Of a DNA stretch of 64,000 nt, positions 3,464-57,786 are shown one piece after another. The stretch is taken from the IMG/VR virus record IMGVR_UViG_3300031992_000005, positions 289,026-353,025 of that record. One strand, given 5' to 3'. The position numbers and the translations under genes are program-made. Source of the stretch: a virus. The stretch's first letter is position 1. Every line of letters starts with the position of its first letter. The notes under the pieces were generated by a model. The model saw nothing but the letters and a program-made list of their open reading frames with translations, searched no databases and had not been told where the DNA came from.

Positions 3464-3478
3464 AAGAAAATTAACATT

Positions 3479-28300: not shown

Positions 28301-31300
28301 ATGCGGAGGAGAAGACAATGAATCTATAGAAATGCATAATGATTCATTATTACCTCTCAGAGAAATTGGTATTTATCGTCTTAGAATTAAGTGTGAGCAT
28401 CCATTCCGCGTTACCTTAGTAGATAACAATGAAGAGAGAAGTAGTATAGGCTTTTATGATTCAGCCAATGATATCATAAAAAGATCTACTATGCTTGACA
28501 TAAATACCTATGATAATTTCGTCGGTACAGAAGTTGACCTCCTATTCCTAGGTCATGAAAACGACGAAGATAGTTTCTCTAAAAGTAATCCTACCCTAGA
28601 ACTAAAAACTAGAATACAAGTAACAAACCTATATGATAATACGTCTGTTAGTTTTGGTTTAGAAAGAACTTACTATAAAGTAGTAAGTGAAGAGAATTTT
28701 GAAGGATGGAAGGAAGTATTATATTCAAAAATCACTGCAATTGATCCAAGAACCTATAATATTTTCCTACCAGTAAATTCAAATGATGCTCTTCTTAAGT
28801 ATACGTCAGCCATAGAAACTTTGAGAACTGTAGCCGGTCATAATGGAATTACTTGGACAAGAACTATAAAAGATAAGCCCAATTTTTCTAAGGACTTATA
28901 TTACAGAAATCTTAGTTATGTAAATAGTCAAAATGCTGAAACTAATATTCCTGGACATGGATATAAGTATAATAGCTTAGATGTATCTGTGGGTCTTATT
29001 TCAAATATCGGAAATAGTTATCCAATTAAATGTTTTGGTGAGATTGAGCTAAGATACCAAGGAGACTATCTCGGAGAATACAAAACATATTACTTTTATA
29101 AACTCTTAGATGTTCCTACTGCAACTATAAAAACTACTTCAGAAGATACTTCTATTCCAGGTTTAGTTATTCCTTACAATAGGTCAAGTGCAACCGTAGA
29201 AATAGAGCTACCTAATAATGGTAATTATAGGCTATTTTTCCAAAGAGCAGAAACGGCAGTAGAAACTGAGATAGCTAAGGATGATGATACCCTAGTTCCT
29301 ATTACTGGCTCAACTACGTTAGACTTCTTTCCTATATCCGGAAGAAATAATGCATTCTCTGTATCTATTCAGGATATTAATAATACTGCAATAACTTTTT
29401 TAGGAACATTATATGCTAAAACGTTTGTAGATAAAAATAGTTTTGCGATAGATCAAAATGGAGAACCTCTAGTATTTTCTGAACAAGAGGAAGTAAATAG
29501 AATAGCTGGAGTAAGTACATCTAATATTGTTAGTGTATATTGGGGAAATGGTGAAGGCGTAGCTGATTATATTAGTGGCAATTACTCATTACTATCCAGA
29601 CAAGGAGAAACCAGAACCTTTATAATTCATAGAGCGGATGGAAGAATTAGTCAAAGTGAAATTGAAACCATAATGACTAATTATAAAAGTATCTTAGGAT
29701 CATTCTACTTTAATGGACAAGTATATGAAGGCTATAATATAGAGTGGAAAAGATTACTAGATCAAGCTCTCCAATGTGGTAATGGAGTAAATCAGATATA
29801 TACCTATTCAAATAATAATTATATTAAGCTATCAGATAGTATCTATTATGACTTTGATATAAATATTCGAAGAAATCCATCTTCGTTTGCAAAGTTTAAA
29901 TACTTACAAGAATTAAGAGGAAATTATAATCCTGGTGGAGATTCTATTGGACTTAATAAAACAATCATAATCGATAACGATAATGATTTAAAGATTCCAA
30001 TCGCACAGGAATGTTGGGAAAAAGGTATTGTTGCTAGAAGATTGGATGCTAATCGTCAGACTTTTACTTACCTTAAAAACGATACCACAATCACCACAGG
30101 AAGATACTTATACTTGGGAGAACAAAATAAGACTGTTAATATACTAGCTGGTGCTACGGACAAACATGTATACCTAGAAATATATTCCGTCCAACTCCCT
30201 GCAAAAAATATAGATACTACTTACGATGTAGTAGATGTAACAGCAGGAGATGAAGAAGGAAGACTTCTCCGAAGTATCTTAAGTGAATACGGAGACGGAT
30301 TGACAATAGAGTATGATGAGTATATGGGTATTGAAGTTGAAAAGTCTGTTTCTGCATTTACTGAAGTAAGTGATAATGATTATAGAATATACTTAGATAT
30401 CACTCTTCCTGAAAATAACTCTTTCTATAATTATGGTGATGATGAAAGTGAGTATGAAACTATTACTGACAGCTCCTATGGACCCTACGAGATAAGAGTG
30501 ACTGATGGAGATTATAATAGTGTAACTTACTATATCTACGTCAGCCCTAGGAAAGAACTTAGCTTAGACTTATATCAAGGACTCGCAGAGTATGATGATG
30601 TAGATAATTACTATATTGGACCTAATGACATAAAGGTTAAAACAGTCTTACTCAGTTCAAACGGAGATTTGTTCAGTATTATAGGTGAAAATATCAAGAA
30701 TCATGAAATTAAGTTATTTTCCCAAGATTACTTCTATGCAGTTACTAATGCCACTGACGATATGATCAGGCGGGGATTTTCAGTAAAATGTGATGAGCTA
30801 AGGGATGATGAATCATCTCCTTTCTGGAAATCACCTTATCCTGGTGAATATAAGTTCAAATATAATGTAACCATACCTACTGAACAAAGTGTCACAGACC
30901 CATATGACCCAAATACTTTCTACGCTTACGACGAAAATGTTAGTGGTAATCTAAAGGAGAAAAAGATATCATATACTCTTTTCCCTAACAGAGGCGTAAA
31001 TGTAGACTTAAATAATAGGTTTGAATATGAATTCGTAAGTGAATATACAGTAGGTAGTGATAGAAAAAGAATTTATAAAATAAAGTCAGTCAATCTTGGA
31101 GTTAGTAAAATATGGTCTCCATATAAAGAAGACTTATACTCTTCTATAGAAGTTCCGAAAGTAGATAGTAATGGCATTATTGCTGCAAGACGTACTGGTA
31201 CAGCTCCTGACTATACCTACAACAATGAGGTAGAAATAGTTGATGGAAATCCAACAAATAAGAAAGAAGAATTTCTTACTGGAATAATTGGTACAACAAT

Positions 31301-32534
31301 AAGAATCCAAAAACAAGGAAGTGGAACATACATGCCAGTGACAAATGGAATTTATAGAATGAAATTAACCCTATCAATCGGAAATGCCAGAAAATCTAAG
31401 GGAGTGAGCCTTTGGGGTTATCATGGACACTGTAATATTCGACTTTCTACTCCAAGATCTCCATTCTTAAGTGTGAAACTCTATTCAGATACAATGTCTG
31501 CTCCTGGAATATATAACCTACTACCTAGTCCAATAACGGAGAAGTATGTATTATATGAACATGGATTAGATACTAATAGTTCTTATAATGGGGTTCCACT
31601 AGGAGATCCAAGCGAATTTAAAAACTTCTATCAACCTGATTTTGAAACAGTATTATCTGCGAATTCTGACATATACACAGACACTCGTAATGGAACGGAA
31701 GTATATTGTATAGATATGGATAATACTATTACTATTAACTATACTGCAAGTAGTACTTTCAAAAACCGAATCTTCTCTAAATATGGATTCCTGGGTGGAT
31801 TCTTAATAAACAAGGTGACAAGAATTGAGTTCATTCATTATAGTGGTAGTAACACAGGTAGTTTCAATCTCTACAATAACTCTACATTATTCTACGGAGA
31901 TACGCATATAGAAGAGCGTATTCACTATGTTCAGGGAAATTCTAAAACTGGATTAGTACTAACCCCACTTAGCCCTACTACTGGATTAAGCGAAAGATAT
32001 ACATTATATCACACGGGGGATGATCCTACAACAGTAGTAAGAAGCCTTCCTGCAGGTGAGTTGTTCTTTGCGATGACTAAGAAAATTTACCGAGATCACC
32101 TAGAAAATACAACCTTAAGGAGGAGAGTTAGAAGTGATAATCCTTGTACCATTAATTTCCTTAAGTGTTTCAAATCATATGATCCAGGGATAGTTGTTAT
32201 AAATGACGCAAATCCTACAAGTCCATCAGATAATTTTGAAGAAACCTATACCTCGGCCATAATTAATGGTAGAAATGGTGACTCTGAATATGGAACAATC
32301 TACATTAGAGACATTATCACTGAGAAGAATGTAGGTACTAAGGTCTATGATGAATTAGGTCGTCCAGGAATTTTCTTAGATATTCCTAAATCAAAGTTTA
32401 CTAACATAGGTAATAATATCTACGAATACGTAACAGATGAAATATATCTTAGTGATTTTATAACATTCAATAATGGTGATACATATAGTACACCTAAATC
32501 TCCAATAAGAATAAAAATACGAATTAAACTATAA
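25365..32534 (+). CDS. Giant (2389 aa) virion-module protein, unknown function
   Basis: Uninterrupted 7.2-kb ORF. ATGA overlap upstream, and the stop is followed 1 nt later by the next ATG. No catalytic or repeat motif recognised by eye. Confidence 0.6.
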   Translation: MIVEFENKFKVELKTPGNSFKLCTYRLGSGNDISNYFQFESLWDPDTRILNMALDLSFLRKDLVTDIDRTSDLTIAESCTYIDVYYSDLNDNIIGLAFKLKGDNENDPLNLCSFEAGREITDPTFWRNMNYINLRLPKDTKANIETLEINENTDFLEQLTSTEGINTFLVEGNKENDTILTKNSFAKHVRNTISKNNFSPMYLDYFGEKVLDIETFKYYKKIVITCVGPAKVETLENGTVTCSVNNRSSVAIKGYCLFDKYQVINDEYTLIEENLREDLSKTTLVRLIGGIETSDNVGIEIDQSGKQINIDDVDGVNSEINIAAKLTFTNKLGEEKEEITIVSNIVQINLFFSWYIEYFTSYTQKDDSGTSHPVILFDTTKENAGWTEGYRSDADEENTPGTILVYSSKRIPETGINVTADEGGSKQGIFESYFSVEIEDRGFSEEADKFIYAIKIKTKLENTEDIWCPIDPSTKESTLILMNINIGESIQEGEVSAQFYCVQRVISPLTIGRAEVKIKEQDNSRSYTWIENGVTELTFESGLGLTSLDGLFVCNPKIGYELWEVILDDEATKNLISYNVKNNIETFGATPKEDNEIFFYSRRNSELIERTLGTITFKRINNETKSYDNSYWQDRIYGDESNCATITLKRDALDSDSLWNVRSSTPYSYSDPLEGVSRRLYILSDQETQSFTIESSQSLLNHLSVTLCNYVETPPEGSGIYAETSEEREGLVTEFNKYFRVGEANSNNGNVGIKYSADTLSATITLKAINQDEYDWQPKCNNGKPIRVKISYGSEDESDPLLGRAETFYAIVRPSFAGTDITFRDTNWTDEEYPIMEEYTFPETGGNLPTYVVAPVESGSVGVFDHWIVLKKDPEITVKFQGKPDEGSVNYSCLLITKAQQSIWPALGLLTEISTKSKSEDSLSRDFDDLVIRRAAGDYDNIVEFYSDWLNQVCDHSSSRLKLSLGGAAESKTVKVSYECGGEDNESIEMHNDSLLPLREIGIYRLRIKCEHPFRVTLVDNNEERSSIGFYDSANDIIKRSTMLDINTYDNFVGTEVDLLFLGHENDEDSFSKSNPTLELKTRIQVTNLYDNTSVSFGLERTYYKVVSEENFEGWKEVLYSKITAIDPRTYNIFLPVNSNDALLKYTSAIETLRTVAGHNGITWTRTIKDKPNFSKDLYYRNLSYVNSQNAETNIPGHGYKYNSLDVSVGLISNIGNSYPIKCFGEIELRYQGDYLGEYKTYYFYKLLDVPTATIKTTSEDTSIPGLVIPYNRSSATVEIELPNNGNYRLFFQRAETAVETEIAKDDDTLVPITGSTTLDFFPISGRNNAFSVSIQDINNTAITFLGTLYAKTFVDKNSFAIDQNGEPLVFSEQEEVNRIAGVSTSNIVSVYWGNGEGVADYISGNYSLLSRQGETRTFIIHRADGRISQSEIETIMTNYKSILGSFYFNGQVYEGYNIEWKRLLDQALQCGNGVNQIYTYSNNNYIKLSDSIYYDFDINIRRNPSSFAKFKYLQELRGNYNPGGDSIGLNKTIIIDNDNDLKIPIAQECWEKGIVARRLDANRQTFTYLKNDTTITTGRYLYLGEQNKTVNILAGATDKHVYLEIYSVQLPAKNIDTTYDVVDVTAGDEEGRLLRSILSEYGDGLTIEYDEYMGIEVEKSVSAFTEVSDNDYRIYLDITLPENNSFYNYGDDESEYETITDSSYGPYEIRVTDGDYNSVTYYIYVSPRKELSLDLYQGLAEYDDVDNYYIGPNDIKVKTVLLSSNGDLFSIIGENIKNHEIKLFSQDYFYAVTNATDDMIRRGFSVKCDELRDDESSPFWKSPYPGEYKFKYNVTIPTEQSVTDPYDPNTFYAYDENVSGNLKEKKISYTLFPNRGVNVDLNNRFEYEFVSEYTVGSDRKRIYKIKSVNLGVSKIWSPYKEDLYSSIEVPKVDSNGIIAARRTGTAPDYTYNNEVEIVDGNPTNKKEEFLTGIIGTTIRIQKQGSGTYMPVTNGIYRMKLTLSIGNARKSKGVSLWGYHGHCNIRLSTPRSPFLSVKLYSDTMSAPGIYNLLPSPITEKYVLYEHGLDTNSSYNGVPLGDPSEFKNFYQPDFETVLSANSDIYTDTRNGTEVYCIDMDNTITINYTASSTFKNRIFSKYGFLGGFLINKVTRIEFIHYSGSNTGSFNLYNNSTLFYGDTHIEERIHYVQGNSKTGLVLTPLSPTTGLSERYTLYHTGDDPTTVVRSLPAGELFFAMTKKIYRDHLENTTLRRRVRSDNPCTINFLKCFKSYDPGIVVINDANPTSPSDNFEETYTSAIINGRNGDSEYGTIYIRDIITEKNVGTKVYDELGRPGIFLDIPKSKFTNIGNNIYEYVTDEIYLSDFITFNNGDTYSTPKSPIRIKIRIKL

Positions 32535-33248
32535 ATGTTCGATACAATATTTAATAGATTCAAGGACATCTGCAATACGATAGTTACAGTTGAGCAGAAG
32601 ATTGGATTTAGAAGCTTCAGACGTTACGTTATAATCCTTGTAGCAGCAGTTGTAGTATTGAAGTTCTCAACTTTTACTAAGTCAACGGTTGAGTTCTTCG
32701 TTAATATGGTTGAAGAGTTACATGGAGAAAAAATGAGAATTCGTGACGAACTCATGTCTGAACTTAGACCAATCTTAACTGAGTTCCGTGCTACAACAGA
32801 AGCTGACCGAATCCTATATTTTGAATATCATAATTCAGAAGATAATCTTGATGGAATTCCTTTCAAGTTCTTTGACCTTATGATGGGAAATAGTAGATTT
32901 GGTATTCCTGAAGTTCCCGGGCCAGTTTATAAAGATGTAGGGTCCTCTTTATACACAAATCTCTTTGATGATATAGGGGAAGGTAAAATCTTACACTGTT
33001 CAGGGGCAAAAGATATAGAATTTAGACAAACTTATGGTGGTGTCTTTGAATTTATAAATGAGACCGACTACTCTAGGCAACAGGTAATATTTAGTATTCC
33101 TGGGGTAAGAACACCAATAGGATTCATAATTCTAGAATGGATGTCTGACACAATTGATATTAACCTCAGGGAGGAAATATATCCTGCAGTTAATGTATAT
33201 ATACCTAGAATAAATGCTCTCTTAACATCAGCTAAAAATAAACTGTAA
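32535..33248 (+). CDS. Protein with N-terminal transmembrane/anchor helix, unknown function
   Basis: 237 aa. Has a hydrophobic segment YVIILVAAVVVLKF near the N-terminus. Last gene before a strong terminator. Confidence 0.5.
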   Translation: MFDTIFNRFKDICNTIVTVEQKIGFRSFRRYVIILVAAVVVLKFSTFTKSTVEFFVNMVEELHGEKMRIRDELMSELRPILTEFRATTEADRILYFEYHNSEDNLDGIPFKFFDLMMGNSRFGIPEVPGPVYKDVGSSLYTNLFDDIGEGKILHCSGAKDIEFRQTYGGVFEFINETDYSRQQVIFSIPGVRTPIGFIILEWMSDTIDINLREEIYPAVNVYIPRINALLTSAKNKL

Positions 33249-33340: not shown

Positions 33341-35020
33341 ATGAAAACTGAAAGAAGAATACAGATTTCAAGAAGTAAGTATATAGAAGAATCCAGAGCA
33401 ACTGCTATCCTACGCCTGAATAGATATGAATTTAGGAAAGGAGAACTTGTTACTGTCATCTATAAGAAACCTGAAGATTTCATGTCCCGCTTCAATAATC
33501 AAATTGATGGGGTGACTATCGTTGGTAATCTGGAGTATGGTAGTAATCCAGGGCTTGGGGCTCTCATAGCCGTTGGTATAGCTAATGGAAAGGGAGAGAA
33601 ATACTATAGACTTATTAGCGGAGGAGGCGTAGTTAAAGTTAGAGGTGTACTTGAATATCTTGCTGATGTAGCCCTCCTAACAAATGCTATTAACCTAGAT
33701 GTAGGAGAGGTTTATGTTTGTAAGAGTGATGGAGACGGAAAATGGTATTACGTATACAAGCCAAAAGACTCTGACGAGCGTGTCCTAGAACCTATCACAG
33801 GCGGACCTTATATCTTCCTTGATACAGGAACGGGTTATAGATGGTTTTACAGTGGAGACTTCAATGAAGGTACACAAGACTGTAAACGAGAAGATGATTT
33901 CTTAGCAGGAGCAAAGACTCAAAAAATCCTAGAGACGCTCCTAACAAGTAATCTAAAACTAAACTTAGAATCTCTTAGTGGTGATACTATTAATCCTGGA
34001 GATGAAGGGAATCCACTAATATTCAAAGCCTCTGCTTCAGATGAAACAAGCGGAGAAAATCTAACGGAAAAATGCAAATTCTACATTATTGTAGATGGAC
34101 AAGAAAGAGAAATTACTCTTGATAGTGACGGAAGATTTACTATTCCAGGGAATTTCTTAGGAGAAGATGATACTGATAAAACAATAACTGTTATTGCTAA
34201 ATATGGTATCGTCGATGATTATTATACTGAAATAAAAAATACATACACTATCTTCAAGGGATTTGAAGTATATTTCTTCAAAGTAGAGAAAGATGAATTA
34301 CCACCAGGCAATGCGTCTTCTTACGAAATAGTTAACAAACTACAGGGAATTGAACCAGTTATTAGGAAAAAAGAAAATATAAGTTGGGATGATATCATTC
34401 TGAATTACCAAAGAACTGGTGTTGCATTCCCTTCTATTTTTGGAAATATAAGTCATATCTATGATGATAATGGACTAGATTATATTAGAACCTACACAGC
34501 CTATTCAATAACTCTGAATGGAGAAGATTATACTGTATTCATTAAAGATGACCCAGTTCAGATAGATTCATTCTATCAGGAATATAGTTTTGATAGAGCC
34601 TCTCAGGATGAAAATGAAGAAGAGCTTAATGTAAACACCTTAAAAGAACTTCTCAATTCATGGAACAGTAGAAATGGAGCACAGGGTCTTCTGATGCTGA
34701 ATAATTATGGCAGAATTCCCGAAAGAATCTTTGATAATATTAGCATTGAGCAAGCTTTTCCTGTCATAAGGGGATTTGTAGAAGAAGCTCCTACCAGTGG
34801 AATGGTAACCGGAGATGTTTATTACCTAACGGGACAGAAAAAGCTCTTTACTGCTACTAGCCCATCTAATGGGGTATTATCAGACCTATCAACAAAAACA
34901 ATATACTATTATAATGGAAAATTATATATTGTTAATAAATCAGGAGGATTAGGCCCAATTAGTAGTGAATCAGATAATATGACTTCTAGAGTAATTAATA
35001 GTATTGTAGATATATTTTAA
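33341..35020 (+). CDS. Fibre-like protein carrying a module shared with 50328..51257
   Basis: 559 aa. The segment LNYQRTGVAFPSIFGNISHIYDDNGLDYIRTYTAYSITLNGEDYTVFI aligns with LNYQKVCAAFPAYLGDVESIKDANGFEYIDSYTKTTLDIGGITYNVYV in 50328..51257. Confidence 0.5.
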   Translation: MKTERRIQISRSKYIEESRATAILRLNRYEFRKGELVTVIYKKPEDFMSRFNNQIDGVTIVGNLEYGSNPGLGALIAVGIANGKGEKYYRLISGGGVVKVRGVLEYLADVALLTNAINLDVGEVYVCKSDGDGKWYYVYKPKDSDERVLEPITGGPYIFLDTGTGYRWFYSGDFNEGTQDCKREDDFLAGAKTQKILETLLTSNLKLNLESLSGDTINPGDEGNPLIFKASASDETSGENLTEKCKFYIIVDGQEREITLDSDGRFTIPGNFLGEDDTDKTITVIAKYGIVDDYYTEIKNTYTIFKGFEVYFFKVEKDELPPGNASSYEIVNKLQGIEPVIRKKENISWDDIILNYQRTGVAFPSIFGNISHIYDDNGLDYIRTYTAYSITLNGEDYTVFIKDDPVQIDSFYQEYSFDRASQDENEEELNVNTLKELLNSWNSRNGAQGLLMLNNYGRIPERIFDNISIEQAFPVIRGFVEEAPTSGMVTGDVYYLTGQKKLFTATSPSNGVLSDLSTKTIYYYNGKLYIVNKSGGLGPISSESDNMTSRVINSIVDIF

Positions 35021-35023
35021 ATT

Positions 35024-38000
35024 ATGGCAGAGGATACAAAATTACAAGGAACGAACATTGCCTCAAGAATTGTACCATTCGATTCTCAGGATACCTTTCC
35101 TACCCACGAAGCCTTCTATGGTAGAGGTGGTTATAGAACAGTAGAGGACATTGCAAGCCGAGATGCCATTCCAGAACAACGACTGGAAGAGGGTATGCTT
35201 GTGTACTGTAAAAATGACCCTACTGGCGTTCATACTTATAGATATATGGGTATGAAAGAAGGAACTAATACACGTATTTGGAAAGAATTGAAGCTAGAGG
35301 GAACTGGAGTGCCTATCTATACTAATGCCAACGTCGAGGAGATGAGAGAAGCTGGTGTTAACGTAGATGAAATGGATTACATAACTATTCCAGACGACGA
35401 TGATATTGAGGGTGAGGTAACAAATAAAACTTATGAAACCACACAAAATGGTACTTATGTTGACATTCTATTCAAGGCACTTAGAGCATTACAATCCGAG
35501 GTTGCAAAACTTAAAAACTCGTTCCTTTATGGTATTGAGTCTTATAGCGGAACTGATACAGCAATGGCGGCTATAAGTGAAGAACTTGAAGAAGCCATAG
35601 CAGAAGAACCTCTTTGGGCAGTAGAAGAAGATGGACTTAGCAGCGTGTATGATTTGTTTGAAGCAGCCCCAGAAGCAATTCCAGCTGAATTTGAAGCAAG
35701 AGAGTCTAGTACTGTAGTTGCAACAGAAGATCATACCGGCGGACGATACTACGTTACAATCGACAGCCCTATAAATATTCCAGTCACATGGAATGCGATC
35801 GAAAGAAGTGAGATAGGTAAAATAACCGATAGTAAACTATTTCTCTATCTAACTACTACTGGAGAGAATAATGCGGGGCTAAAATACGTTGTACATATTC
35901 AAGAGGACAGATTAGATGGAACCTCTAGAGAAATAGACTTCGACCTAAGACCATTAATAACTAGTGGTAGTATTACATCTAGTAGTAAGGTATACAATAC
36001 TTTAATTGTTATCAGTAGAAAACAAAAAGTAGCTACTTCTGCCAAAACAGATGAGGAGGGAAATATTTTACCACCTACTACCGAATATTATGGAAGTAAT
36101 TTCATTTGGATAAGTGTATCAGACCCAGTTACAAATTCAACCATAAAGGAGGGATATTGGAAAGATAATACCATTTACGATGATCTTACCCAAGTCGATG
36201 AAGATACAGTATTTTACGATGGCATCCTTTCCTTAAGATCCGTTGATTTTTATAGTACTGTAATCTCTAAATTTCACCTCTACTCCAAGTATCAAGATTT
36301 CACTAAAGGCGTAATACCTAGTAAACCATCAGATGATACTTGGAAATTTAAAGCTGCCCATATTACTATTAGGTCAGTTGATACTTTTGAAACATTAAAA
36401 GAGCTCAAAGATAAATTATTAAATAATGAATTAATATTAGTAGAGAGCTCATATACATTATATATAAAAATAGATAATAAACTTGTTGCTATCGGCAGTC
36501 AATCTTCTCCAGGTGGAGGAGGGTCTAGCGAAGACGGAGGTAGTAGCGAAGATGAAGATACTGGTATGACAAAAACAGAAATTATTCAATGGCTAAGTGA
36601 AAACGGAATAGTCGTTACAGAAAATGGAGGAGATCTTGTTCTTAATGATGTTGCGGACATAACATTTAAGCATGAGGGTACTGGGAAAACCTTCAAATTT
36701 ACCGTTAATGAAAACGGTGAACTTGAAAGTCAGGAAATCCCCGATAAAACAATAAGCGAAGATTTAAAAGATTATACTCTCAAGGGAGACATGAATCTTC
36801 GAGGTTTTATTGCACAATATAGACTAAGAAGTAATGTCAATCAGACAGGTAATGCTAAACTAAAGAGTGATAGATTAAAAATTGGTTCATTCTATGCACC
36901 TCTTAGTGGAGATGTTGTTCATGGATGTACTCACTCATTTATTGAGTTAGAAAATACTTCGGATATAGATATTCCATTGAAAGGAATTTATCTACATGTA
37001 ACTAAACCCGCGATTAATTCCTCAGGTGACGTAGTCCAAAACATATATAGTCTAGAATTAACAGGTATTATTCCATCTGGAGGAACTTATTTAATAAGAG
37101 GCGCAAGACATGCAGAAGATGATGATGCTAATGCTTTTATAAAAGTAAAAACTTACGATCAAGAGTGGTATGTAGACAGCCCTACTGATAGTGATAAGAA
37201 AGAATTACTTTCTCTAGAGATATTAGAAGATATTAATTACGGAGCTTCAGGAAATCCATATGGTCACGGTATTTGTCTAACTTATGGAAACTCTGGTTTT
37301 ACTGGAGGAGATGGTGATAAAGTAGGACCTAGAACACAATTAGTTCGCGGAACTATAGCAAACGAAAAGTTTGACAGTGTTACAATCATTGAATCCGGTG
37401 CATTGAAAAACAAAGAGGACTACCCTTATTGCTATCATAAAAACTTCATAGATGGTATATGTTACTATTTTGCAGTAAAATCAGGTAACTCTCCATATTG
37501 GGCAACTAATGCTATCGGTAAAAATGACGACAAGAGGACAATGTCTAATGTTATGTATAGAAATATGTTCGAACTTGATCCAGCTAATCAAGCCTATCAA
37601 GCATTGAATTCAAAAGATAGTTCAAGAAGAAGATGGGATAAGAACGGAACCGATGTTCAATTACTGGACTTATCTAAAGAATATATTTCTTTCCCAAAAA
37701 CAGAAGACATCTACCCTTTATCTAAGTTTACTCCAAAAGCTTCTTGGGAACATCGCAATGTATGTACAGATAAATCTAAGCTTGATCCTAACAAACCAAA
37801 TATGGTAACTTGCTCCTTTGGTATTAATATCTATACCACTAGATGCTTTAACTGGATCTCCTTAGGATATTTTGATGAATACATTTGGATAAAGAAAACG
37901 AAGGTTGGAAATAATTCTGTTAATGAGTCATGGAAAAGATTTGAATCTTACAAGGAAATAAGTGAGGAAACAGCTAACGCCAGCACTTATCCACGTAGAA

Positions 38001-39970
38001 AGGAATTTAACGTGACTGTAAACAATGCTATATATGCCAGAATAACTGGAAGATTTCCTGCTGACAATAGTTTCTATACCGCACATAAGGTTATCATTGA
38101 TATTACAGAAAATCCAGTTAGTACCAACCCAGAGGAGTATACCTATATAGTAGGTAGAGCAGATAAGAACGGTAACCCTGATCCAGAACATACTTCTAGA
38201 GAACAAACCTTTACTTTATACCCAACTAGTTATACAACCAAGATCTATCAGATTACTGACCAACAGGGATTTCACTGGATAGAGTATCAAGTCTGGGCAG
38301 CAGCTGCAGATAAGCTCAATGAAGTAATAGCAAGCGAAGTAGCAAGTTCCAATATAATACCTATTCTTGTTAATACTGGTGATATGACTCAGAATGGTAC
38401 TCGTATTAACGAATGGTTCGATTATTATCAGGCTGGTAGAAATCTATTCGATCACCTAGAACAAATGAACTGTGTGGGTAATAATGACTTATGTAACACT
38501 GATATAAATGCGCTAGGTACTGGAGATGATGAAGGTAAATCTAACTCCTACTATTTTCATGTATTCTATTGCTATGAAGTAGATGTTACTAATAATATTC
38601 CCGTTCCACTATGTTCAGGTAGGAATGATGAATTCGATCCTAAATATATACCATCCCTATATTACTTTGATTCAACTACTGATAGATTTTTAGTTATAAA
38701 TAGTGAACTTACATCAGCCACTTCAAAGAACTGGTTTAAATTGATTCCTGACAATAATAGTAATACTAAATACATCAATATTTATACAGGTTGGGAATTT
38801 GATACTAGTAATCCAGTAGTTCAGCATTACTATGGAGATGATTTTGTCCCTGTGTATAAAATAGTCTGGAATATATTAAATGATGCAAGAACTAAAGGAA
38901 AAAAGACTATAGCAATCTGTCATGAAATGCCATTTACAGTTATTACCCATGCATCACTTGCCACAGGATCTGGTAATGAATTAGTAGATAGATCAATTAG
39001 CTCTTCTAAACTTGTAGGCAGTCACTTAAACCAGATACATGCAAAAGAGTTAAGTAGCTCAGAGGGTAATGGTTATACAATGAAGGGTACTTACTGGTTC
39101 AGTAGACTATTAGAATACTTTGACGTTAAATTAGTTATAGGTGGTCATAAGCATACATATGCATGTACTTATCCTATTAGAGAAAACTATAATTACCTAG
39201 TAGATGGTAATATGGTAAATAGTTTAACCAATAAGATGGTAATGACGGAAGATACTCTAAAAGAGGATCCAATGATCGTATTCGATGGCCAAACATCATC
39301 AAGTATAAAAAGAAATTTAACTAGATTCCCATATATAAAGAAAGATGATTTCGTAAGTCCTACGAATGATTCTAATCACTTCTTCCCTTCTACTAATCTA
39401 TACTCAGTAGGCGGAGGAGTAGCTTATGTAGAGGACCTTAACGTAAATTCAAATAATTTTGTTGGAGGAAATTTCTATAAGATAGTTCAGGGTCAATTCG
39501 TTGCAGCAGACACCTTTACGCAGGGTACAACTTATTACAAAAAGTTGACTGATTTTGATACTTTTGATGGTATTGTATATTTCATGTGTCAAGCTACTGG
39601 ATATAAACTAAAGTCTAATAAAGAATTGCCATCAATTTTCCAAACCTTCTCAAAAATAATTCCAAAGACAGATAATGCAGCTGGAGGAGATTCACCTAAT
39701 AATAATCAATTACGTCCAATGTTTGCTAAGATAACGGTACAAAATGGTTCTTACAGTATAACCCTTTGTAGACTAGAAAACATTATGACTGAAAGAGAAG
39801 ATCAAGGTTATAAATTTACTCAGACTGCATATGGAAAATCAGCTATCAAAATTAGTAATCTAGTAGTTAATTCTACAAATAATTATGGAGATTGGATAGA
39901 CGAAGACAATACTGATTATTCTACTCCAGAAAGTAGAGTTCTATTTAATAATAGTTATTTTACTGATTAA
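35024..39970 (+). CDS. Giant (1648 aa) fibre-like protein with lamin-tail-like and metallophosphoesterase-like domains
   Basis: Has an N-terminal module plus a short coiled coil (ALRALQSEVAKLKNSF), a Gly/Ser/acidic linker (PGGGGSSEDGGSSEDEDTG) and the two domains listed separately. Confidence 0.6.
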   Translation: MAEDTKLQGTNIASRIVPFDSQDTFPTHEAFYGRGGYRTVEDIASRDAIPEQRLEEGMLVYCKNDPTGVHTYRYMGMKEGTNTRIWKELKLEGTGVPIYTNANVEEMREAGVNVDEMDYITIPDDDDIEGEVTNKTYETTQNGTYVDILFKALRALQSEVAKLKNSFLYGIESYSGTDTAMAAISEELEEAIAEEPLWAVEEDGLSSVYDLFEAAPEAIPAEFEARESSTVVATEDHTGGRYYVTIDSPINIPVTWNAIERSEIGKITDSKLFLYLTTTGENNAGLKYVVHIQEDRLDGTSREIDFDLRPLITSGSITSSSKVYNTLIVISRKQKVATSAKTDEEGNILPPTTEYYGSNFIWISVSDPVTNSTIKEGYWKDNTIYDDLTQVDEDTVFYDGILSLRSVDFYSTVISKFHLYSKYQDFTKGVIPSKPSDDTWKFKAAHITIRSVDTFETLKELKDKLLNNELILVESSYTLYIKIDNKLVAIGSQSSPGGGGSSEDGGSSEDEDTGMTKTEIIQWLSENGIVVTENGGDLVLNDVADITFKHEGTGKTFKFTVNENGELESQEIPDKTISEDLKDYTLKGDMNLRGFIAQYRLRSNVNQTGNAKLKSDRLKIGSFYAPLSGDVVHGCTHSFIELENTSDIDIPLKGIYLHVTKPAINSSGDVVQNIYSLELTGIIPSGGTYLIRGARHAEDDDANAFIKVKTYDQEWYVDSPTDSDKKELLSLEILEDINYGASGNPYGHGICLTYGNSGFTGGDGDKVGPRTQLVRGTIANEKFDSVTIIESGALKNKEDYPYCYHKNFIDGICYYFAVKSGNSPYWATNAIGKNDDKRTMSNVMYRNMFELDPANQAYQALNSKDSSRRRWDKNGTDVQLLDLSKEYISFPKTEDIYPLSKFTPKASWEHRNVCTDKSKLDPNKPNMVTCSFGINIYTTRCFNWISLGYFDEYIWIKKTKVGNNSVNESWKRFESYKEISEETANASTYPRRKEFNVTVNNAIYARITGRFPADNSFYTAHKVIIDITENPVSTNPEEYTYIVGRADKNGNPDPEHTSREQTFTLYPTSYTTKIYQITDQQGFHWIEYQVWAAAADKLNEVIASEVASSNIIPILVNTGDMTQNGTRINEWFDYYQAGRNLFDHLEQMNCVGNNDLCNTDINALGTGDDEGKSNSYYFHVFYCYEVDVTNNIPVPLCSGRNDEFDPKYIPSLYYFDSTTDRFLVINSELTSATSKNWFKLIPDNNSNTKYINIYTGWEFDTSNPVVQHYYGDDFVPVYKIVWNILNDARTKGKKTIAICHEMPFTVITHASLATGSGNELVDRSISSSKLVGSHLNQIHAKELSSSEGNGYTMKGTYWFSRLLEYFDVKLVIGGHKHTYACTYPIRENYNYLVDGNMVNSLTNKMVMTEDTLKEDPMIVFDGQTSSSIKRNLTRFPYIKKDDFVSPTNDSNHFFPSTNLYSVGGGVAYVEDLNVNSNNFVGGNFYKIVQGQFVAADTFTQGTTYYKKLTDFDTFDGIVYFMCQATGYKLKSNKELPSIFQTFSKIIPKTDNAAGGDSPNNNQLRPMFAKITVQNGSYSITLCRLENIMTEREDQGYKFTQTAYGKSAIKISNLVVNSTNNYGDWIDEDNTDYSTPESRVLFNNSYFTD
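36856..37115 (+). other. Lamin-tail-domain (LTD)-like segment (approximate bounds)
   Basis: LKIGSFYAP...HSFIELENTSDIDIPLKGIYLHV...YSLELTGIIPSGGTYLIRGA fits the LTD pattern (xFVELxNxxxxxVDLxGWxL ... IxPGGYxVI). Confidence 0.45.
38236..39180 (+). other. Calcineurin-like metallophosphoesterase domain with GNND in place of GNH(D/E) (approximate bounds)
   Basis: Ordered motifs: ITDQQG, NTGDMTQNG (GDxxxxG), VGNNDL (the GNHD/E position with His replaced by Asn), ICHEMPF, IGGHKHTY (GHxH). Confidence 0.6.
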
Positions 39971-39975
39971 ATTTT

Positions 39976-42900
39976 ATGAAAAGACCTAATAAAAATAGTG
40001 CCACAAATGGTAATATCGTTTTCGACGACGATATTACCATGACTGGTACGAATAAAGCGTTTGGGAAAGATCTCCATAGCGCGATGGAGAACCTTTGGTC
40101 AAGAACAGCTAAATTAGAAAATTACCTAAAATGGATCTATAAATACGGCGGCGTAGGTGGAACCGGCGGTGGAGGAGAGACTGCTACATCATATACAGTC
40201 TATGCAGAACTTAATCATAGGAAAGTTGTAGAAGATCCTACTGCATTTATCAACCTAGGTTCATCAGGTACTTTTCCACTTTTAATAAAAATTTCAAAAC
40301 CAGGTGGAGCATCTTATAAAGTAAACTGTACTTTTACAGATAATACTGGATCTATTATAAACACTATTAATGAAACATTAAACCTGGATAATAGTTATAC
40401 GTTAGAAAGAGTTGTAAATATTTCTAAAAATGGTGTACTAAATATAAAAGTTACTGATAGTATCTATAATGAAACTACACCACTCTCCACTAGATATATT
40501 ACTGACCCATACAGATTTACGGGAGATTTAATAAATAATAGTGGTCGTGCATACTCAAATGAAATTTTTACGTCAGATATATTATCCAATGGACTATATC
40601 TAAGACTAAATTACCAGATATCAGTAGCGACTGAAGTATCCTATAAATTAAAAGTAACAACTCCTAAGTTAACTTTTAATAGCGAAGGCTTCACTGCGAT
40701 GGAAGACTTAATAGTATCCAATACAGAGGAGGGTGATTATATAATTGATATTATACAGTTTCTGAGAAAATTTGATTACGGCCTTACCGAGTCTAACTCA
40801 GGTAATTATAGTATTTCTGTCGAACTTCAAACAAAGATAGTTGGAGATCTAGAAACAAATTCTTATACTCCACTAAAGACGCCAATCTCTTTTACTATCG
40901 TTCCAAAAACACTATACCTACTAGTACAGTCTACTTCAGGTACACTATATCAAGTAGAACAAGAACCTGACTCAGTATCTACTGACGATCTATTCTCACC
41001 TGGTAGTATAACTTTTAAAGTTAAACCTTATTTTGAAAACGTTATAGGAAAAAGCTGTACTATCGACTATAAATTAGGAGATGAATTCGAATGGCAAACT
41101 ATTTCAACTAACCTAAGAGATACCCAACAAATAACTATATATTCTACCAGACCTGGAGAGAATAGTATATCATTTGTTCTGAAATACGATAATAAAAAAT
41201 ATCCTACCCAAGAGCAATCCAATGTTGGTGAAGGTACCTACTATTTTTATATAAAAAATTCTACCTTTGACGGAGGCTGGTGGCATCAATTTGAGAAAAA
41301 TACAGATAGACCTTTCTACGATGACCTAAACCATTACTTCAAAGTAACAGAGTGGTCACCAGAATTTAACCCGTTTAATGCTACGTTCGGTAGAAATCCA
41401 ATAAAACAAACAGTAAATAAATCTCCTGTAACTTTAACGAATTTAACCTGTCCTACTGGATCTGACGGTTTTAATACGATAGTTAATATTGGTATTGAGT
41501 ATAATACTATAAATGAAGATGGTGCACCAATACTAAAAATAACTGCATATGACGATACTGAATTAACACTTTATCAAAACAGAATTACCCTTGGGGCAAA
41601 TTCCATTGAAGACGATAGATTATTCATTCCAAAAACAGACTACAGCTCTTTTACTGGATTAAATAATACAGAGGACTATCACTTAATTTCTATTGTAAGT
41701 AGGCAAGTAAAGAAGTTAGGAAATACTGATAATCGTGGTAGAGAAGTAATTATTTACATAGATGGAGTCATTGAGGCTTGTTTTAAAACATTCCTTTATA
41801 GTCCAGGAACCCCATCAAATAACTTAACCGTAAAGGATATAAGTCTATATAGCGTCAACGCAAATTTCAACTTATTTGATATAGCATACTTCAGTCCAAT
41901 CGAGTCTAAGGTAAGTACGGAATATTATATTCCAGAAGATGTTACAATTTATCAATATTACTTGAAATATAAGGAAACACTCTTAAGCAAAACACTTACT
42001 GAAGAGGAAATTAACTTGCTGACTTACTACGACAATATTGATTTTAATCCAGAAAACGGAGACATTTTCTGTTCTGAGGATGCTATGAATAATATAGCGA
42101 GAAACCTCAATGTCCCTGTAATGGCTATTCTAGTAGATGATAATAAAAACGGTAATTATAAAGATTTATTAGGTGGCTATTATCTAGAGTCGAGTACAGA
42201 AGAACTTGAAACAAAAGCTACTTTAAAGTGGAGTGGATTAAAGGGAAAAACTTCGTTAACTGATATAAGCTTTCCAAATAGAACCATAAGTAACACAGGT
42301 AGTTATATAGACTGGACAAGTAATATCCATTTTTATGTAAAAATACAGGGTTCATCTACAAAGGGATATCATATTAAGAATTACACGCTTACCTTAAAAG
42401 ATGATGAAAACCTATATATTCCGTTGTTTTCACCAAACTTTAAAAATAACGACACAACTACATTTCTCCCTGAACACTCATTTACTCTAAAAGCCGACGT
42501 AGTAGATTCCAGTCACTCTAATAATACTTCTATTGGAAATTTTGTTAATGACATCACTACTAAATTCAAAACAAGCCCTACTTCAGTGGATGATGCCTTC
42601 TCTGGATACATAAAAAACTGTTTGACAGGTTTTCCTTTTCTAATTTTCATGAAATTCATCGACCCAAACAAGTCGCCTGATGCTCAAGATGAAAATTACT
42701 ACTATCATGGAGTATATAATTTTAACTTAGGTAGAGAATCCGAGTATAACCTGGGCTATAAAGATTACAATGTCTTCTGTGATAGTAACGGAAAAAGTAT
42801 ACTAGAAGATGCACCAGATTCTGGTGGATTTTCATTTCACATGGTCACTAAGTCCAGTAGTGTTGTAAAAAATGGAGTAATTACTGCAGAAATTCAAGGA

Positions 42901-45900
42901 AACAGCTCATTTCTAGACTTTTCACAATTTGATGAATCATTATTGTTCCAGAATGACAGTGTCTCTGACGAAAACGTAACTACCATGTTCGGTAAAATTA
43001 CAGATGAAAATCCGGACGTATCCTATATCAGAGGAGAAAACCTACAAAATCAAGATGCAAGAAATATCTTACAAAGATTTGTAGAAAAAGTAACCTATGC
43101 GGGTGGTTATGTCTTCACTCAGCTAAAGAAAACCTTTAGTGACGATGGGAGTGCAGGAGTCTTATATGGTTACGGATCTAAGCCCCCACAAGGTTATAAA
43201 GCAGTTGGTAAGATAAAAGTTTGGAATGAAGATTTAGGTGAAATAGAAGAAAAAACCCTTCCATTAAACCAAGTCCCTAACTATCGACACCAATTTATTA
43301 GAACAGTCAGTGGAATTACGCCAAAAGCTGGTTTAACCAGACCAGGTACACTAAATGACCTCATGGATTTGGTTAGAAAAGACGAAAATGATCCTGATGC
43401 TGGAATTCCTTTACTAGACTTTGACAGCGTAAGTGAATATTATACTATCTGTATGGCATTTGGTTTGATAGACTCTGTCCAAAAGAATCTTACATTAAAA
43501 ACATGGACCGCAGATAAGGAGAGCGGACTTGGTACTTTTTATGTAGCATTCTACGACATGGATACTTGCTTAGGAATTGATAATGCTGGAAAGAAAGTGA
43601 ACTACACTGCATTCTCTGATTATTGGACAAAGAATGAATCAGAATCAGATGGAACAAGTACTAGTGAAACAACCTCAAGTGGAACCGTAAGTTATAAAAC
43701 AATTACACCAATTTCAGCTACAGTCTACAGAGACTATTCCCCTTCTGGAGGAGAATACTTCGACGTTGCTAGTTCCTACCTATTTGCGATACCTAAATAC
43801 GCAACTTATATTGCAGGAAAACTTAATCTTAATGCAAGCGATAGTGCGTTTACAGAAAAAATTACAAACTGGCCAAGGCAACTCTGGGAAAAGTGGAGAT
43901 CGAGAAGAAATCCGTCGGATCATAAAATAGGTTGTCTAGAATCCGCTGACTATTTTATAAAGACTTATTTCTCTAATAACTTAGGATCAGTTGGCATTCC
44001 ATTGATTAATGCAAATTACAGAGCAAAATATTTAGTTCAATTGTACTATTCAGGTGATACTACAAATTCTAAAGATGAACTTGGTAAGTTTAATGGAACA
44101 CGCATCGCTAGAGTAAAAGAGTGGTTAAATAATCGTCTTCACCTCCTAGATGCATATTTTAACATAGCAAGAGGTGTAAATAATCCTATAATGTTCTATA
44201 GAGAATGTAATGAGGAAATAGATGGAGAAATGCAGACATTCTATAAGTATACTTCTACGGAAGAAGATACTAGCGCAGACCATTATATGTCAGAACCTAC
44301 TATTTCAGAATACACGTCCGCTACTAACCCAGATGTTTATATAAACTCGGATATTTTTGATAAGCTTTCTCTACAATCAAGTATACCTTTTGTCGTTACT
44401 GTACGTGCTAAAGAAAACTCACCTCTTATTATAACATGTGCAAACTGGACGAAGAGATATCTTATTGGTGGTAATAATTATTATCAAATCCCAGTCCCTG
44501 TATCAGGAACCCAGGCATATAGATTATTAGGTTCAAAAAACTGGACCTATATGGACAGTATTAATGGATTTCACTTAGATGGTACATTTTATATAAACAC
44601 TCAATATATAGATCAACTTGTGGGAGATGATAATTCATCAGAGGCGAAAGAACTGACCTTTGATAATAGCGCTACCGATAATATCCTTATGCCTTCATTG
44701 AAGACAATCAGTTTAACTAGTCCTAAATATAAAGGTACACTTAAATTAGTTGGTACAAACTATACTAACTTAGGTACAATTGATTTAAGTAATTCTAGAA
44801 TAGGTTTAAACATGCAAAACACTACTTGTACGGAACTTAATCTATCTAACGTAAATGGGTCAAATAATCAGTATAATATAGTGGATTGTCTAAATCTTTC
44901 AAAAATTACAATCGTGAGTGCCTATATGTCCTCGCTAATAATAAAGCCTATCCATCCAGATATTATTACTAAAAACTGTGAAACAAGCTTTGGTAAGGTA
45001 ACTAGTAGTAATGTAATTAACCTAGCAAATATTACACCTACTACTTCCAATAATCAAAACACTCCTTTTGGAAAAACAGGCTCTGGATTTTATCTAAAAA
45101 ATACTCATATTCGTGAAATAAATATATCGAATACTAAAATTAATGAAGATAGATCCAGAATAGAGATTGATGGAGACGACACCTTGTATAGCATAACGAT
45201 TGCAGGATTTTCGGTGGTTGTGATAAAGAATTGTCAGAATCTTAATAAGATAAACATATCCGACCCTGAAGCAGGTATTGGTGGCGATAAGCTGAGAAGA
45301 CTATGTATTCAAAATTGTGGTAATGCTGGTACAGACTTAACTATAAATTCTACAGAAAGAGGACATCTGAATTTAACGGATTTCTCTGACCTAAACTTTG
45401 TGAATTTTAGAGAATGTACCAACATAACTAGCATTGAGTTTAGCAATACAGGGGTTTATCTGGACTATGACGCTTTCTATTCCGACAGTAATCTAAGTAC
45501 CATTGATGGAAAAGCCTATATAATAGGTACTACTACCACTGGAACAAGGATCAGACCTACCTTCTATCTTTGTAAAAACTTTAAACTAACGAAAAGTAAT
45601 GGAACTACTTGCTGTGATTTATTTGTCATAGAACAAGCAGTATCTCTTAATAGTACATTCTCTATTGGAAATAGTATTTCAAAAGAAGGCGAAGGAAAAA
45701 TAACACGAACTTTGGCTAAAACATTTATAGAAAGAATCCCAACAAATAACAACATTACCGATATAACCAACATGTTTTGTGGAAATAGAATTGAGTATAA
45801 TGAAACACTATTAGTTAGTGACATAAAATCTACGAAAAACTACATAGACATGTCGGTTTTTAAGAAAGTAACAAACGTAAGTGGGGCTTTTAACTATAAT

Positions 45901-56865: not shown

Positions 56866-57106
56866 AGGATGTGTATGTTGGGGTAGGTATGTAGATGATA
56901 AATCCCTCGAAGAATTATCAGAAGAAGAGAAAAATAATTTACTTCAAGTCTTAAAAGATCAATTAACTTTAAGCGACTTAAATGAAGTATTTGACTTAAT
57001 CTTAGATAATCATTATACAGATTACGAATCCGACGACAAACCATGTGAATGCTGCGGAGATTACGTATGCACATGGAAACTTGAAATAAAAAACCTAGGG
57101 AATTAA
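56846..57106 (+). CDS. Small acidic Cys-containing protein
   Basis: 86 aa. Has N-terminal GCVCWG and C-terminal KPCECCGDYVC, a possible metal-binding knuckle. Overlaps the phosphatase gene end by 20 nt. Confidence 0.4.
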   Translation: MLLEKTEGCVCWGRYVDDKSLEELSEEEKNNLLQVLKDQLTLSDLNEVFDLILDNHYTDYESDDKPCECCGDYVCTWKLEIKNLGN

Positions 57107-57124
57107 TCCCTAGGTAATTTTTTT
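57094..57124. terminator. Bidirectional terminator between convergent genes
   Basis: CCTAGGGA (57094-57101) pairs with TCCCTAGG (57107-57114), with a 5-nt loop. A-run upstream (ATAAAAAA) and T-run downstream (TAATTTTTTT). Sits at the stops of 56846..57106 (+) and 57103..57786 (-). Confidence 0.6.
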
Positions 57125-57786
57125 AATCTTCCTTTAACATAAATAATCATTCCGTCATTTTCGGCTAAACTATCTCTCTTTTCAATAAATTTTGTAGGTA
57201 AATTAGAAATAGTTCCCAAGAACTTCGGACAATAGCACTGAAGAAATCTTATAAGTGGTGGAGTATACTCATTCACTTCCCTACCCACATCATGAATATA
57301 CATAGACAATACACAACCATTATATCTCGACATAGGGAATTGAAAATCTATATAAGGTAAATGCTCCTTACCACCAGTAACTTCACTTTTGTAATAAATC
57401 CTATCAGTACAACAACTAGTTATAGTATTTTCCGCAATATTAATAACAATTGGTTTCTCTATCGTACTATGGGGCATGAAGAGCAATAATTCAAATTTAA
57501 GCTTATGAATAGAAACATAAAATTCTGAACTCTTATCATAGATTATAGTAGCGCCTAATTTAATTATTCTCATCAAGATATCATCAGTTGAAACTGCAAT
57601 TCTATCTTCCGTAAGGAGAAACCAATCCATTGATTCTAGGAATTTCTCTAATCCTAATATATCATTGTCAGTTAATTTACGGCTAACTACATATGTCTTT
57701 TCTATTTTAGCCAAGTTTACCCTACTTAACATATTCTTACACATATGTAGAGAATATGTAACACTAACCTTAAATGACGAACTCAT
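57103..57786 (-). CDS. Paralog-array gene 8 (family 1), unknown function
   Basis: 227 aa. N-terminal module AKIEKTYVVSRK...MDWFLLTEDRIAVSTDDI aligns with the ORFs at 57770, 58378 and 61257. Confidence 0.6.
   Translation of the reverse strand: MSSSFKVSVTYSLHMCKNMLSRVNLAKIEKTYVVSRKLTDNDILGLEKFLESMDWFLLTEDRIAVSTDDILMRIIKLGATIIYDKSSEFYVSIHKLKFELLLFMPHSTIEKPIVINIAENTITSCCTDRIYYKSEVTGGKEHLPYIDFQFPMSRYNGCVLSMYIHDVGREVNEYTPPLIRFLQCYCPKFLGTISNLPTKFIEKRDSLAENDGMIIYVKGRLKKLPRD

Follow-up and report, generated by a model that had tools for sequence, protein, structure and literature searches.

The window analyzed here is a 64,000-nucleotide stretch of viral DNA (positions 289,026–353,025 of the IMG/VR record IMGVR_UViG_3300031992_000005). 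Positions 35024–39970 of its plus strand form one intact open reading frame (ORF) that encodes a 1648-residue protein from an ATG start codon to a single TAA stop codon with zero in-frame stops, which confirms the protein length given in a preliminary description of the sequence. The ORF lies within a long series of plus-strand genes, with a gap of 3 nucleotides from the stop codon of the upstream ORF and 5 nucleotides before the start of the next ORF (39976). The ORF list, the translation and full-length homologues in crAss-like, Lak and jumbo phages define a fibre-type protein that contains a lamin-tail-like domain (LTD) and a metallophosphoesterase resembling purple acid phosphatases (PAPs). 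It appears to be a large protein of the tail-fibre type from a jumbo gut phage whose lineage is distinct from those of the annotated relatives.

The metallophosphoesterase module and its active site

The putative binuclear metallophosphoesterase catalytic domain consists of residues ~1071–1400 (38234–39223) and is defined by a Pfam match, the invariance of its motifs and its PAP-like fold. Pfam Metallophos (PF00149) matches residues 1073–1379 with an E value of 9.6e-5 and a score of 23.3 bits, above the curated cut-off of 21.5 bits, and the homologues score 22–49 bits. The calcineurin-like phosphoesterase that the preliminary description placed at ~38236–39180 is thereby recovered at the same coordinates.

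An AlphaFold model of residues 600–1648, built from an alignment with 65 homologues, has a mean predicted local distance difference test (pLDDT) value of 83.5 and a predicted template modelling score of 0.88. In a Foldseek search of the PDB, the best matches of the model are plant PAPs (lupin PPD1, kidney bean and sweet potato PAPs) with E values of 2.5e-13 to 1e-9 and a template modelling score of ~0.65 normalized to the target. Weaker matches are found for Lmo2642 (E = 3e-4) and SMPDL3A (E = 0.014). The PAP alignments span ~700 columns, exceeding the catalytic domain alone, and this length fits coverage of an additional FN3-like domain (residues ~926–1070; 37799–38233) that is equivalent to the N-terminal domain of PAPs. 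The FN3-like domain is identified by Foldseek and by Pfam in distant homologues. Pfam Pur_ac_phosph_N exceeds its cut-off in Bacillus phage G gp352 (E = 8.6e-13) and in L015 (E = 1.6e-9), a locus from a metagenome-assembled genome (MAG). Both of these proteins also pass Metallophos at E values of ~1e-12 and show an LTD (E = 8e-7) and the fibre domain Mtd_N, which is above the Pfam cut-off in L015 and just below it in gp352. The window protein itself gives no match to Pur_ac_phosph_N and no match at E ≤ 1 to Metallophos_2, the Pfam family of the YfcE/MJ0936 type. An NCBIfam scan gave no match for the window protein or its downstream partner, and a PDB sequence search with the full protein and the family profile returned nothing.

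The catalytic domain is followed by a C-terminal β-rich region (residues ~1401–1648; 39224–39967) that is defined by the secondary structure of the model and by invariant alignment columns and contains a conserved MCQATGYKL-SNKELPS strand. A motif of the MCQATGYKL type recurs ~35 residues past the GHxH motif in the compact homologues gp352 and L015, and the C-terminal β-region is inferred to extend the catalytic domain as in PAPs. The model thus describes the catalytic module as PAP-like, with an FN3-like N-terminal domain that precedes the catalytic domain.

The four sequence motifs listed in the preliminary description, GDMTQNG (residue 1119), VGNNDL (residue 1151; 38474–38491), CHEMPF (residue 1299) and GGHKHTY (residue 1373), are all found in the translation. 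The predicted site is composed of D1079-Q-Q-G, G-D1120-M-T-Q1123, G-N1153-N1154-D, H1300-E and G-H1375-K-H1377. In the GNND motif (residues 1152–1155; 38477–38488), Asn takes the place of the His residue of the canonical GNH(D/E) motif, as is evident from the translation and from the relatives. An exhaustive phmmer search of the catalytic region against 1.84 billion cluster representatives (50% clusters) yielded only 255 relatives at E ≤ 1e-3, and most of the 150 matches listed exceed 900 residues. GNND is present in 121 of 121 aligned relatives, and the motifs T-D-Q-Q-G-F (I), G-D-x-T-Q-[NS]-G (II), V-G-N-N-D-L (III), C-H-E-M-P-F (IV) and G-G-H-K-H-T-Y (VI) are invariant or nearly so in this 121-sequence alignment. 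Among 144 further cluster representatives from the matches listed, 133 contain GNND and the other 11 lack a match to the motif pattern; DQQG is found in 115 and GHKH in 128 of the same 144. The DQQG, GDxxQ, GNND, HExP and GHxH signature is likewise present in the MAG loci. Phage G gp352, which shares 17% identity with the window protein in the Foldseek alignment, has the corresponding sequences VTDQQGW, GDIAQNA, CVGNNDL, LIHESSY and CGHHHCYH. The His replacement reported in the preliminary description is therefore a family-wide feature. On the evidence of the alignments, GNND is a family signature and not a lesion or a chance occurrence, and the replacement of His by Asn belongs to a set of three coordinated family-invariant changes, in which DxH becomes DQQ, the Arg of GDxxDR or the Tyr of GDxxY becomes Gln, and GNH becomes GNN.

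The site was compared with that of kidney bean PAP, whose reference sequence was verified against PDB entry 2QFP. Local alignment by hhalign pairs H1375 and H1377 with H323 and H325, respectively. Since hhalign aligned the GHxH strand alone, the remaining correspondences rest on motif order and Foldseek: D1079, D1120, N1153 and H1300 would be equivalent to D135, D164, N201 and H286, Q1123 to the Fe(III) tyrosinate ligand Y167, and N1154 to H202. Q1081 occupies the His position of the generic DxH motif of the superfamily. By this motif comparison, six of the seven metal-ligand positions of PAPs are retained, Gln occupies the seventh (the Fe(III) tyrosine), and Asn stands in for the phosphate-contacting His. 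Both the DxH His and the GNH(D/E) His are absent throughout the family, in which these motifs read D-Q-Q and G-N-N-D. That every metal-ligand position is so strictly conserved speaks for a functional site.

Kidney bean PAP (1KBP and 2QFP) and the window protein thus share an FN3-like N-terminal domain, a catalytic domain and a motif I without His. They differ in GDMTQ versus GDLSY, in GNND versus GNHE and in the absence of H295 and H296 from the window protein. PAPs are monoesterases, and beyond the motifs no sequence similarity to the window protein is detectable.

Fibre modules, downstream partner and relatives

The lamin-tail-like immunoglobulin (Ig)-fold domain and its extension comprise residues ~612–815 (36857–37468). 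Pfam LTD (PF00932) matches residues 638–697 with an E value of 0.006 and a score of 17.3 bits, below the gathering cut-off of 34.3 bits. In eight of the eight homologues scanned, the same region matches LTD with E values of 8e-7 to 4e-4 and scores of 21–30 bits, still below the cut-off. Foldseek aligns the domain with the Ig folds of lamin A/C and lamin B1 (probability 0.98–0.99, E ~1e-3). The LTD identity is supported by these fold matches and by the recurrence in homologues. Of the profile and model checks proposed in the preliminary description, those on the phosphoesterase gave a Metallophos match by Pfam and a PAP-like fold; the LTD placed at ~36856–37115 retains its location, recurrence and lamin fold match, but its Pfam score stays under the cut-off. 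Typical fusion partners of LTDs are phosphoesterases and nucleases that are secreted or associated with the envelope, and the combination of an LTD with a calcineurin-like phosphoesterase was noted as a bacterial architecture by Mans et al. (2004). In such bacterial fusions, including that of ExeM, the LTD is N-terminal to an extracellular or envelope phosphoesterase, as in the window protein. Unlike the window protein, the bacterial proteins are cellular, have signal peptides and are not embedded as modules in a fibre, and their catalytic domains either show the canonical motifs or come from other superfamilies.

The N-terminal half of the protein consists of smaller modules. A conserved small β-domain (residues ~29–125; 35108–35398; pLDDT ~85), presumed to be an attachment module, matches phrog_23630 at residues 29–118 (E = 3.2e-5). 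This family of unknown function is the sole PHROGs match of the protein, and the β-domain is 42% identical to the N-terminus of DAC16 gp85. The following helical segment or coiled coil (residues ~145–190; 35456–35593), a presumed trimerization region, contains a long helix at residues 145–170 and a second helix at residues 180–189 in the model. At the equivalent helix site, Pfam Collagen_trimer is matched above the cut-off in the homologue P0115 and below it in P0026 and DAC16 gp85. Residues ~200–425 (35621–36298) form a jelly-roll β-sandwich (pLDDT 85–90) of a lectin- or carbohydrate-binding module (CBM)-like type, which Foldseek matches weakly (E = 1e-4 to 1e-3) with botulinum-toxin receptor-binding domains, CBM22, CBM16 and CBM11, legume lectin and PL7. 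A flexible linker rich in Gly, Ser, Asp and Glu (residues 492–514; 36497–36565; SQSSPGGGGSSEDGGSSEDEDTG) has pLDDT values below 50. The model of the N-terminal 620 residues has a pLDDT of 68.6 and is poorer than that of residues 600–1648. The fibre-type N-terminus, coiled coil and flexible acidic/Gly linker of the preliminary description are all present, as seen from the phrog_23630 match, the model helix and the low-pLDDT linker; its account of the N-terminal half is essentially right on the basis of the model, and a lectin-like domain should be added.

The gene is followed by that of a giant protein of 2883 residues (39976–48627, plus strand), in which a probable diverged CotH-like region (residues ~757–1402; nucleotides ~42244–44181) is indicated by synteny and alignments. 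In each of the 18 related loci examined, which range from crAss-like phages to Bacillus phage G, the gene directly 3′ of the target homologue encodes a homologue of this partner, at least as regards the CotH-like region. Phage G gp353 contains Laminin_G_3, Pfam CotH (E = 3e-16, residues 640–977) and leucine-rich repeats (LRRs), and the L015 partner contains Laminin_G_3 and, at the truncated end of its contig, the start of CotH below the cut-off. The cr124_1 partner homologue is annotated as "spore coat protein/internalin/CotH kinase". Two segments of the window partner, residues 757–932 and 1154–1205, align with gp353 in a region that encompasses the CotH domain; residues 788–932 align with the CotH start of the L015 partner. 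A Pfam scan of the giant neighbours in the window, including the 2883-residue partner, gave no matches, CotH included, so the CotH-likeness of the window partner is transitive. A homologue search with its CotH-like region returned only 19 mostly fragmentary proteins and no Pfam annotation. Phage CotH domains have been called unstudied. The pairing with the giant CotH-like partner is obligate and was overlooked in the preliminary description.

The closest relative of the window protein shares 59% identity with it. Among phage genomes, tblastn identified full-length relatives of 36–40% identity in the Suoliviridae crAss-like phages cr124_1 and cr7_1 and in all Lak megaphages. Relatives extending from the LTD to the catalytic domain were found in Bacteroides phages DAC16, DAC19, DAC20, DAC22, DAC23 and SJC03, in crAss002 (gp19), IAS virus and a Bohxovirus, and a short yet significant match was found in phage G gp352. 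Cultured phages among these include DAC16 (host Bacteroides thetaiotaomicron), crAss002 (host Bacteroides xylanisolvens) and phage G. Megablast of 20 kb against phage genomes gave no DNA-level match. A GTDB genome scan returned 11 loci, all on contigs of 14–400 kb of metagenome-assembled or binned genomes with the same gene pair, and no clear cellular homologue; these loci are taken to be phage contigs.

Compared in detail, the "phosphatase" proteins of Crassvirales (cr124_1 gp20, cr7_1, crAss002 gp19 and IAS virus), the Lak proteins and DAC16 gp85 share 30–40% identity with the window protein, have identical DQQG, GDxxQ, GNND, HExP and GHKH motifs and precede the same downstream giant. The Lak and DAC16 gp85 homologues are unannotated, unlike those of Crassvirales. 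The window protein differs from its Crassvirales and Lak relatives in belonging to another phage lineage, of ~340 kb and collinear with the JGI contig Ga0558721_00098. Phage G gp352 shares with the window protein the order of Mtd_N, LTD, PAP N-terminal domain and Metallophos, the variant motifs and a giant gene that follows (gp353), there with a clear CotH kinase domain. It differs in its length of 866 residues (approximately half the size), in the absence of long insertions between the catalytic motifs, in its Gram-positive host and in the position of the pair outside the tail gene cluster.

The relatives are annotated as "phosphatase" in the crAss-like genomes of cr124_1 and cr7_1 and as "metallophosphoesterase" in phage G. 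Because the family is already annotated in public genomes, its novelty is lower than the preliminary description assumed, and the window protein is, by sequence comparison, a new and rather divergent representative of a family that is annotated but uncharacterized. A review of Crassvirales states that phosphatase domains are carried by tail-spike subunits. An analysis of this family or virion proteomics was found neither in the crAss002 paper, Yutin 2021 or the epsilon-crAss paper nor in the Bacteroides cellulosilyticus Crassvirales preprint or the phage G papers, their supplement aside. Within the searches made, the DQQ/GDxxQ/GNND signature with its diesterase implication, the PAP-like nature of the module and the universal pairing with a CotH-like giant appear to be undescribed.

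The window gene appears to use the standard code, in contrast to the homologues of cr124_1, Lak-A1 and some MAGs, which contain many in-frame TAG codons. The in-frame TAG codons number 16–60 in the target homologues of cr124_1, Lak-A1 and two MAG contigs and in the cr124_1 partner; the TAG-bearing regions are L001 14854–26510, L003 15001–19638, L006 8327–12607 and L007 8633–12634. These TAG-rich homologues indicate stop-codon recoding. Dense in-frame TAG in recoded phages is typical of late genes. The window phage appears to use the standard code because both the target and the partner lack in-frame TAG and end in TAA.

The region of the window at 23437–50335 (~27 kb) is collinear with Ga0558721_00098, a contig of 340 kb, with a shared order of a 643/646-residue protein, a giant protein, a ~500-residue protein, the target, the giant partner, a ~400-residue protein and an endolysin. 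A 237-residue ORF at 32535–33248, between the giant and the ~500-residue protein, has no counterpart on that contig. From this near gene-for-gene collinearity, the window probably derives from a jumbo phage of the Ga0558721_00098 lineage. Also encoded in the window are an endolysin, a tail fibre and a tape-measure-like protein with an M23 peptidase domain; the last two identify the setting of the target as a jumbo-phage tail region. The homologue in crAss genomes is located after the capsid and tail genes.

A candidate virion phosphodiesterase and its alternatives

The consequences of the three family-invariant replacements can be assessed from characterized metallophosphoesterases. In CthPnkp, studied by the Shuman laboratory, the Mn-dependent phosphomonoesterase activity needs all of the DxH His, the GDxxDR Arg and the GNH His; none of the three is needed for the Mn-dependent diesterase activity, and the H264N mutation, which generates GNN, enhances bis-p-nitrophenyl phosphate cleavage. 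Natural replacements of the GNH His are also known. Methanocaldococcus jannaschii MJ0936 is a diesterase in which this residue is Asn, and the YfcE subclass (GNCD) cleaves diesters and does not cleave monoesters, cyclic nucleotides or DNA. MJ0936 and YfcE, which both hydrolyze diesters and neither monoesters nor cyclic nucleotides, resemble the window protein in the replaced His but are single-domain cytoplasmic proteins of ~180 residues that retain the DxH His. As all three "monoesterase" residues are absent from the window protein, a diesterase-only enzyme is the most economical reading. The domain is probably a metal-dependent phosphodiesterase, neither a phosphatase nor a dead domain, and the public label "phosphatase" is probably wrong in detail. 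The preliminary description had left a choice between a binding module and altered chemistry; altered chemistry is favoured, and a pure binding module is less likely because loss of the GNH His spares diesterase activity in CthPnkp, MJ0936 and YfcE.

The best reading, taken from the genomic context, is a virion-displayed phosphoesterase aimed at phosphodiester-linked surface polymers. More specifically, with a little better than even confidence, the protein is proposed to be a tail fibre or tail spike that displays a PAP-like phosphodiesterase and, with its giant partner, cleaves a polymer of the host envelope. An attachment domain would be followed by a trimerizing helix, a lectin/CBM-like jelly-roll, the acidic/Gly linker, the lamin-tail-like Ig domain and the PAP-like module. 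The metal centre is inferred to be intact and would be formed by D1079, D1120, N1153, H1300, H1375 and H1377 together with an amide ligand from Q1081, Q1123 or both, which would replace the usual His or Tyr. The LTD and jelly-roll would keep the fibre on the envelope polymer while the enzyme cuts its phosphodiester bonds. The phage could thereby advance to the cell surface through binding and cutting, with the fibre probably complexed to the giant protein encoded downstream, which is CotH-like and bears LRRs and lectin domains. Candidate substrates would be a phosphate-bridged capsular or teichoic-acid-like glycan, a phosphorylated lipopolysaccharide substituent and possibly extracellular DNA; among these, capsular or teichoic-type polymers bridged by phosphodiesters rank as most plausible.

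The folds of the virion enzymes with which the proposed function can be compared, the β-helix of the phi29 appendage protein gp12 and the GDPD TIM-barrel of the Lactobacillus phage Ld17 baseplate glycerophosphodiesterase, are unrelated to that of the window domain. As tail-borne enzymes known to cut teichoic-acid phosphodiesters of the envelope during adsorption, phi29 gp12 and the Ld17 enzyme are the nearest functional analogues and have the role that is proposed for the window protein. Their activity has been demonstrated experimentally, and both come from phages of Gram-positive hosts.

Several observations weigh against a fibre-borne phosphodiesterase. To our knowledge, no phosphodiester-containing receptor has been identified for the hosts concerned. 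A partner kinase of the CotH type would depend on ATP, which is lacking outside the cell. The phage G gene pair is located far from the tail morphogenesis cluster, and published proteomic or cryo-EM evidence for the family in virions was not found. The PAP second-shell residues H295 and H296 have no conserved counterpart in the motif comparison with the 121-sequence consensus. Moreover, replacement of the DxH His of CthPnkp by Gln or Asn gave less diesterase activity than replacement by Ala, so Gln at the DxH position is not obviously favourable.

The last two of these observations are also what a pseudo-enzyme would lead one to expect. In that case, the phosphoesterase-like domain would solely bind a phosphorylated or anionic ligand on the host surface, with its metal site kept or metal-free, as non-catalytic metallophosphoesterase folds such as Vps29 exist and as amides stand in place of the GNH(D/E) His, the DxH His and the PAP tyrosine. 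This account is unlikely, given that the D, D, N, H, H and H ligands and the amides are invariant from Bacteroidota phages to Bacillus phage G, although binding modules are usually the most variable part of receptor-binding proteins, and that the natural GNND and GNCD enzymes, MJ0936 and YfcE, are active diesterases.

A less probable alternative still is that the target and the CotH-like partner are not external fibres and are packaged or act early inside the host, where ATP is at hand; there, they would combine kinase and phosphoesterase action on targets of the host or the phage, or would degrade the nucleotides with which defence systems signal. The clear CotH kinase domain of the phage G partner, weaker in L015, would fit this idea, since kinases need ATP, as would the location of the phage G pair outside the tail gene cluster, close to nucleases and a diguanylate cyclase. 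Phosphoesterases with which phages counter defence systems are also known (EMBO Rep 2025). The architecture of the proteins speaks against an intracellular pair: homologues of the target contain the fibre-type Mtd_N and Collagen_trimer domains, the target has a lectin/CBM-like jelly-roll, LTDs are typical of secreted or envelope proteins, and partner homologues bear Laminin_G and LRR domains. In addition, the pair lies in the tail region in the window and in crAss genomes, and both genes are TAG-recoded in the recoded phages. An anti-defence nucleotide phosphodiesterase was rejected as the primary reading on the basis of the protein size, the fibre modules and the tail-region context.

The least probable alternative, a virion-borne nuclease whose LTD and phosphodiesterase degrade the extracellular DNA of biofilm or mucus so that the large virion reaches cells, would be in line with the LTD of extracellular ExeM (needed for full DNA degradation in vitro and dispensable for degradation by cells on plates), with metallophosphoesterases reported to be DNA nucleases (Mre11/SbcD and Pseudomonas putida MPE) and with a universal substrate across Gram-negative and Gram-positive hosts, but it is very doubtful in view of a fold nearest to PAPs and not to Mre11 or SbcD, the lack of an OB-fold or other DNA-binding domain in the Pfam scan, the failure of YfcE, which lacks the same His, to cut DNA, and a jelly-roll and lectin/LRR partner that point to glycans.

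Each of the three alternatives fits fewer observations than does the fibre-borne phosphodiesterase. A broader proposal, which is speculative and unlikely as it stands, is that the fibre and the CotH-like giant form a conserved two-enzyme virion machine, passed by horizontal transfer between Crassvirales, Lak megaphages, further jumbo phages and phage G, that reworks a phosphorylated glycan or lipid of the host envelope during entry, with one partner cleaving phosphodiesters and the other binding or transferring phosphate. If true, such a machine would constitute an undescribed class of phage depolymerase or receptor-modifying system and would provide the first function for phage CotH domains.

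Little is known of how crAss-like, Lak and other large gut phages recognize their receptors, and very few of them can be grown in culture. Because the gene pair is shared across these groups and the target is always accompanied by the same giant partner, it is a strong candidate for a common device for host recognition or envelope breaching. If the domain is an active diesterase, a surface polymer with phosphodiester bonds would be implicated as a receptor or barrier in Bacteroidota, and the virion depolymerases would gain a new enzyme class, PAP-like and of the GNND type. The invariant DQQ/GNND site also offers a natural test of the monoesterase versus diesterase specificity predictions derived from mutagenesis.

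Surrounding genes

Two large genes precede the target on the plus strand. The 2389-residue (25365–32534) and 559-residue (33341–35020) proteins that they encode have no Pfam or PHROG matches, and their sole detected relatives, of 30% and 38% identity, respectively, are on the 340-kb contig. As their only relatives are found there, the two proteins are lineage-specific, unlike the target–partner pair.

The 1864-residue protein encoded at 5871–11465 (plus strand) contains an internal M23-type metallopeptidase or endolysin-like domain at residues ~1000–1150 and resembles tape-measure proteins that bear lysin domains. A GIY-YIG-type homing endonuclease gene (14835–15824, plus strand; PHROG E = 4e-20) is inserted among the tail-region genes.

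On the minus strand, eight consecutive overlapping ORFs of 178–227 residues occupy positions 57103–61895. Four of these ORFs (59000–61273) are clear paralogues, with 36–47% identity and E values down to 4e-28, and form a tandem array. The sign of the GC skew flips across the 57103–61895 block. At 2477–4321 of the plus strand, two adjacent ORFs of 328 and 280 residues both match phrog_2990, a family of unknown function, which suggests a local duplication.

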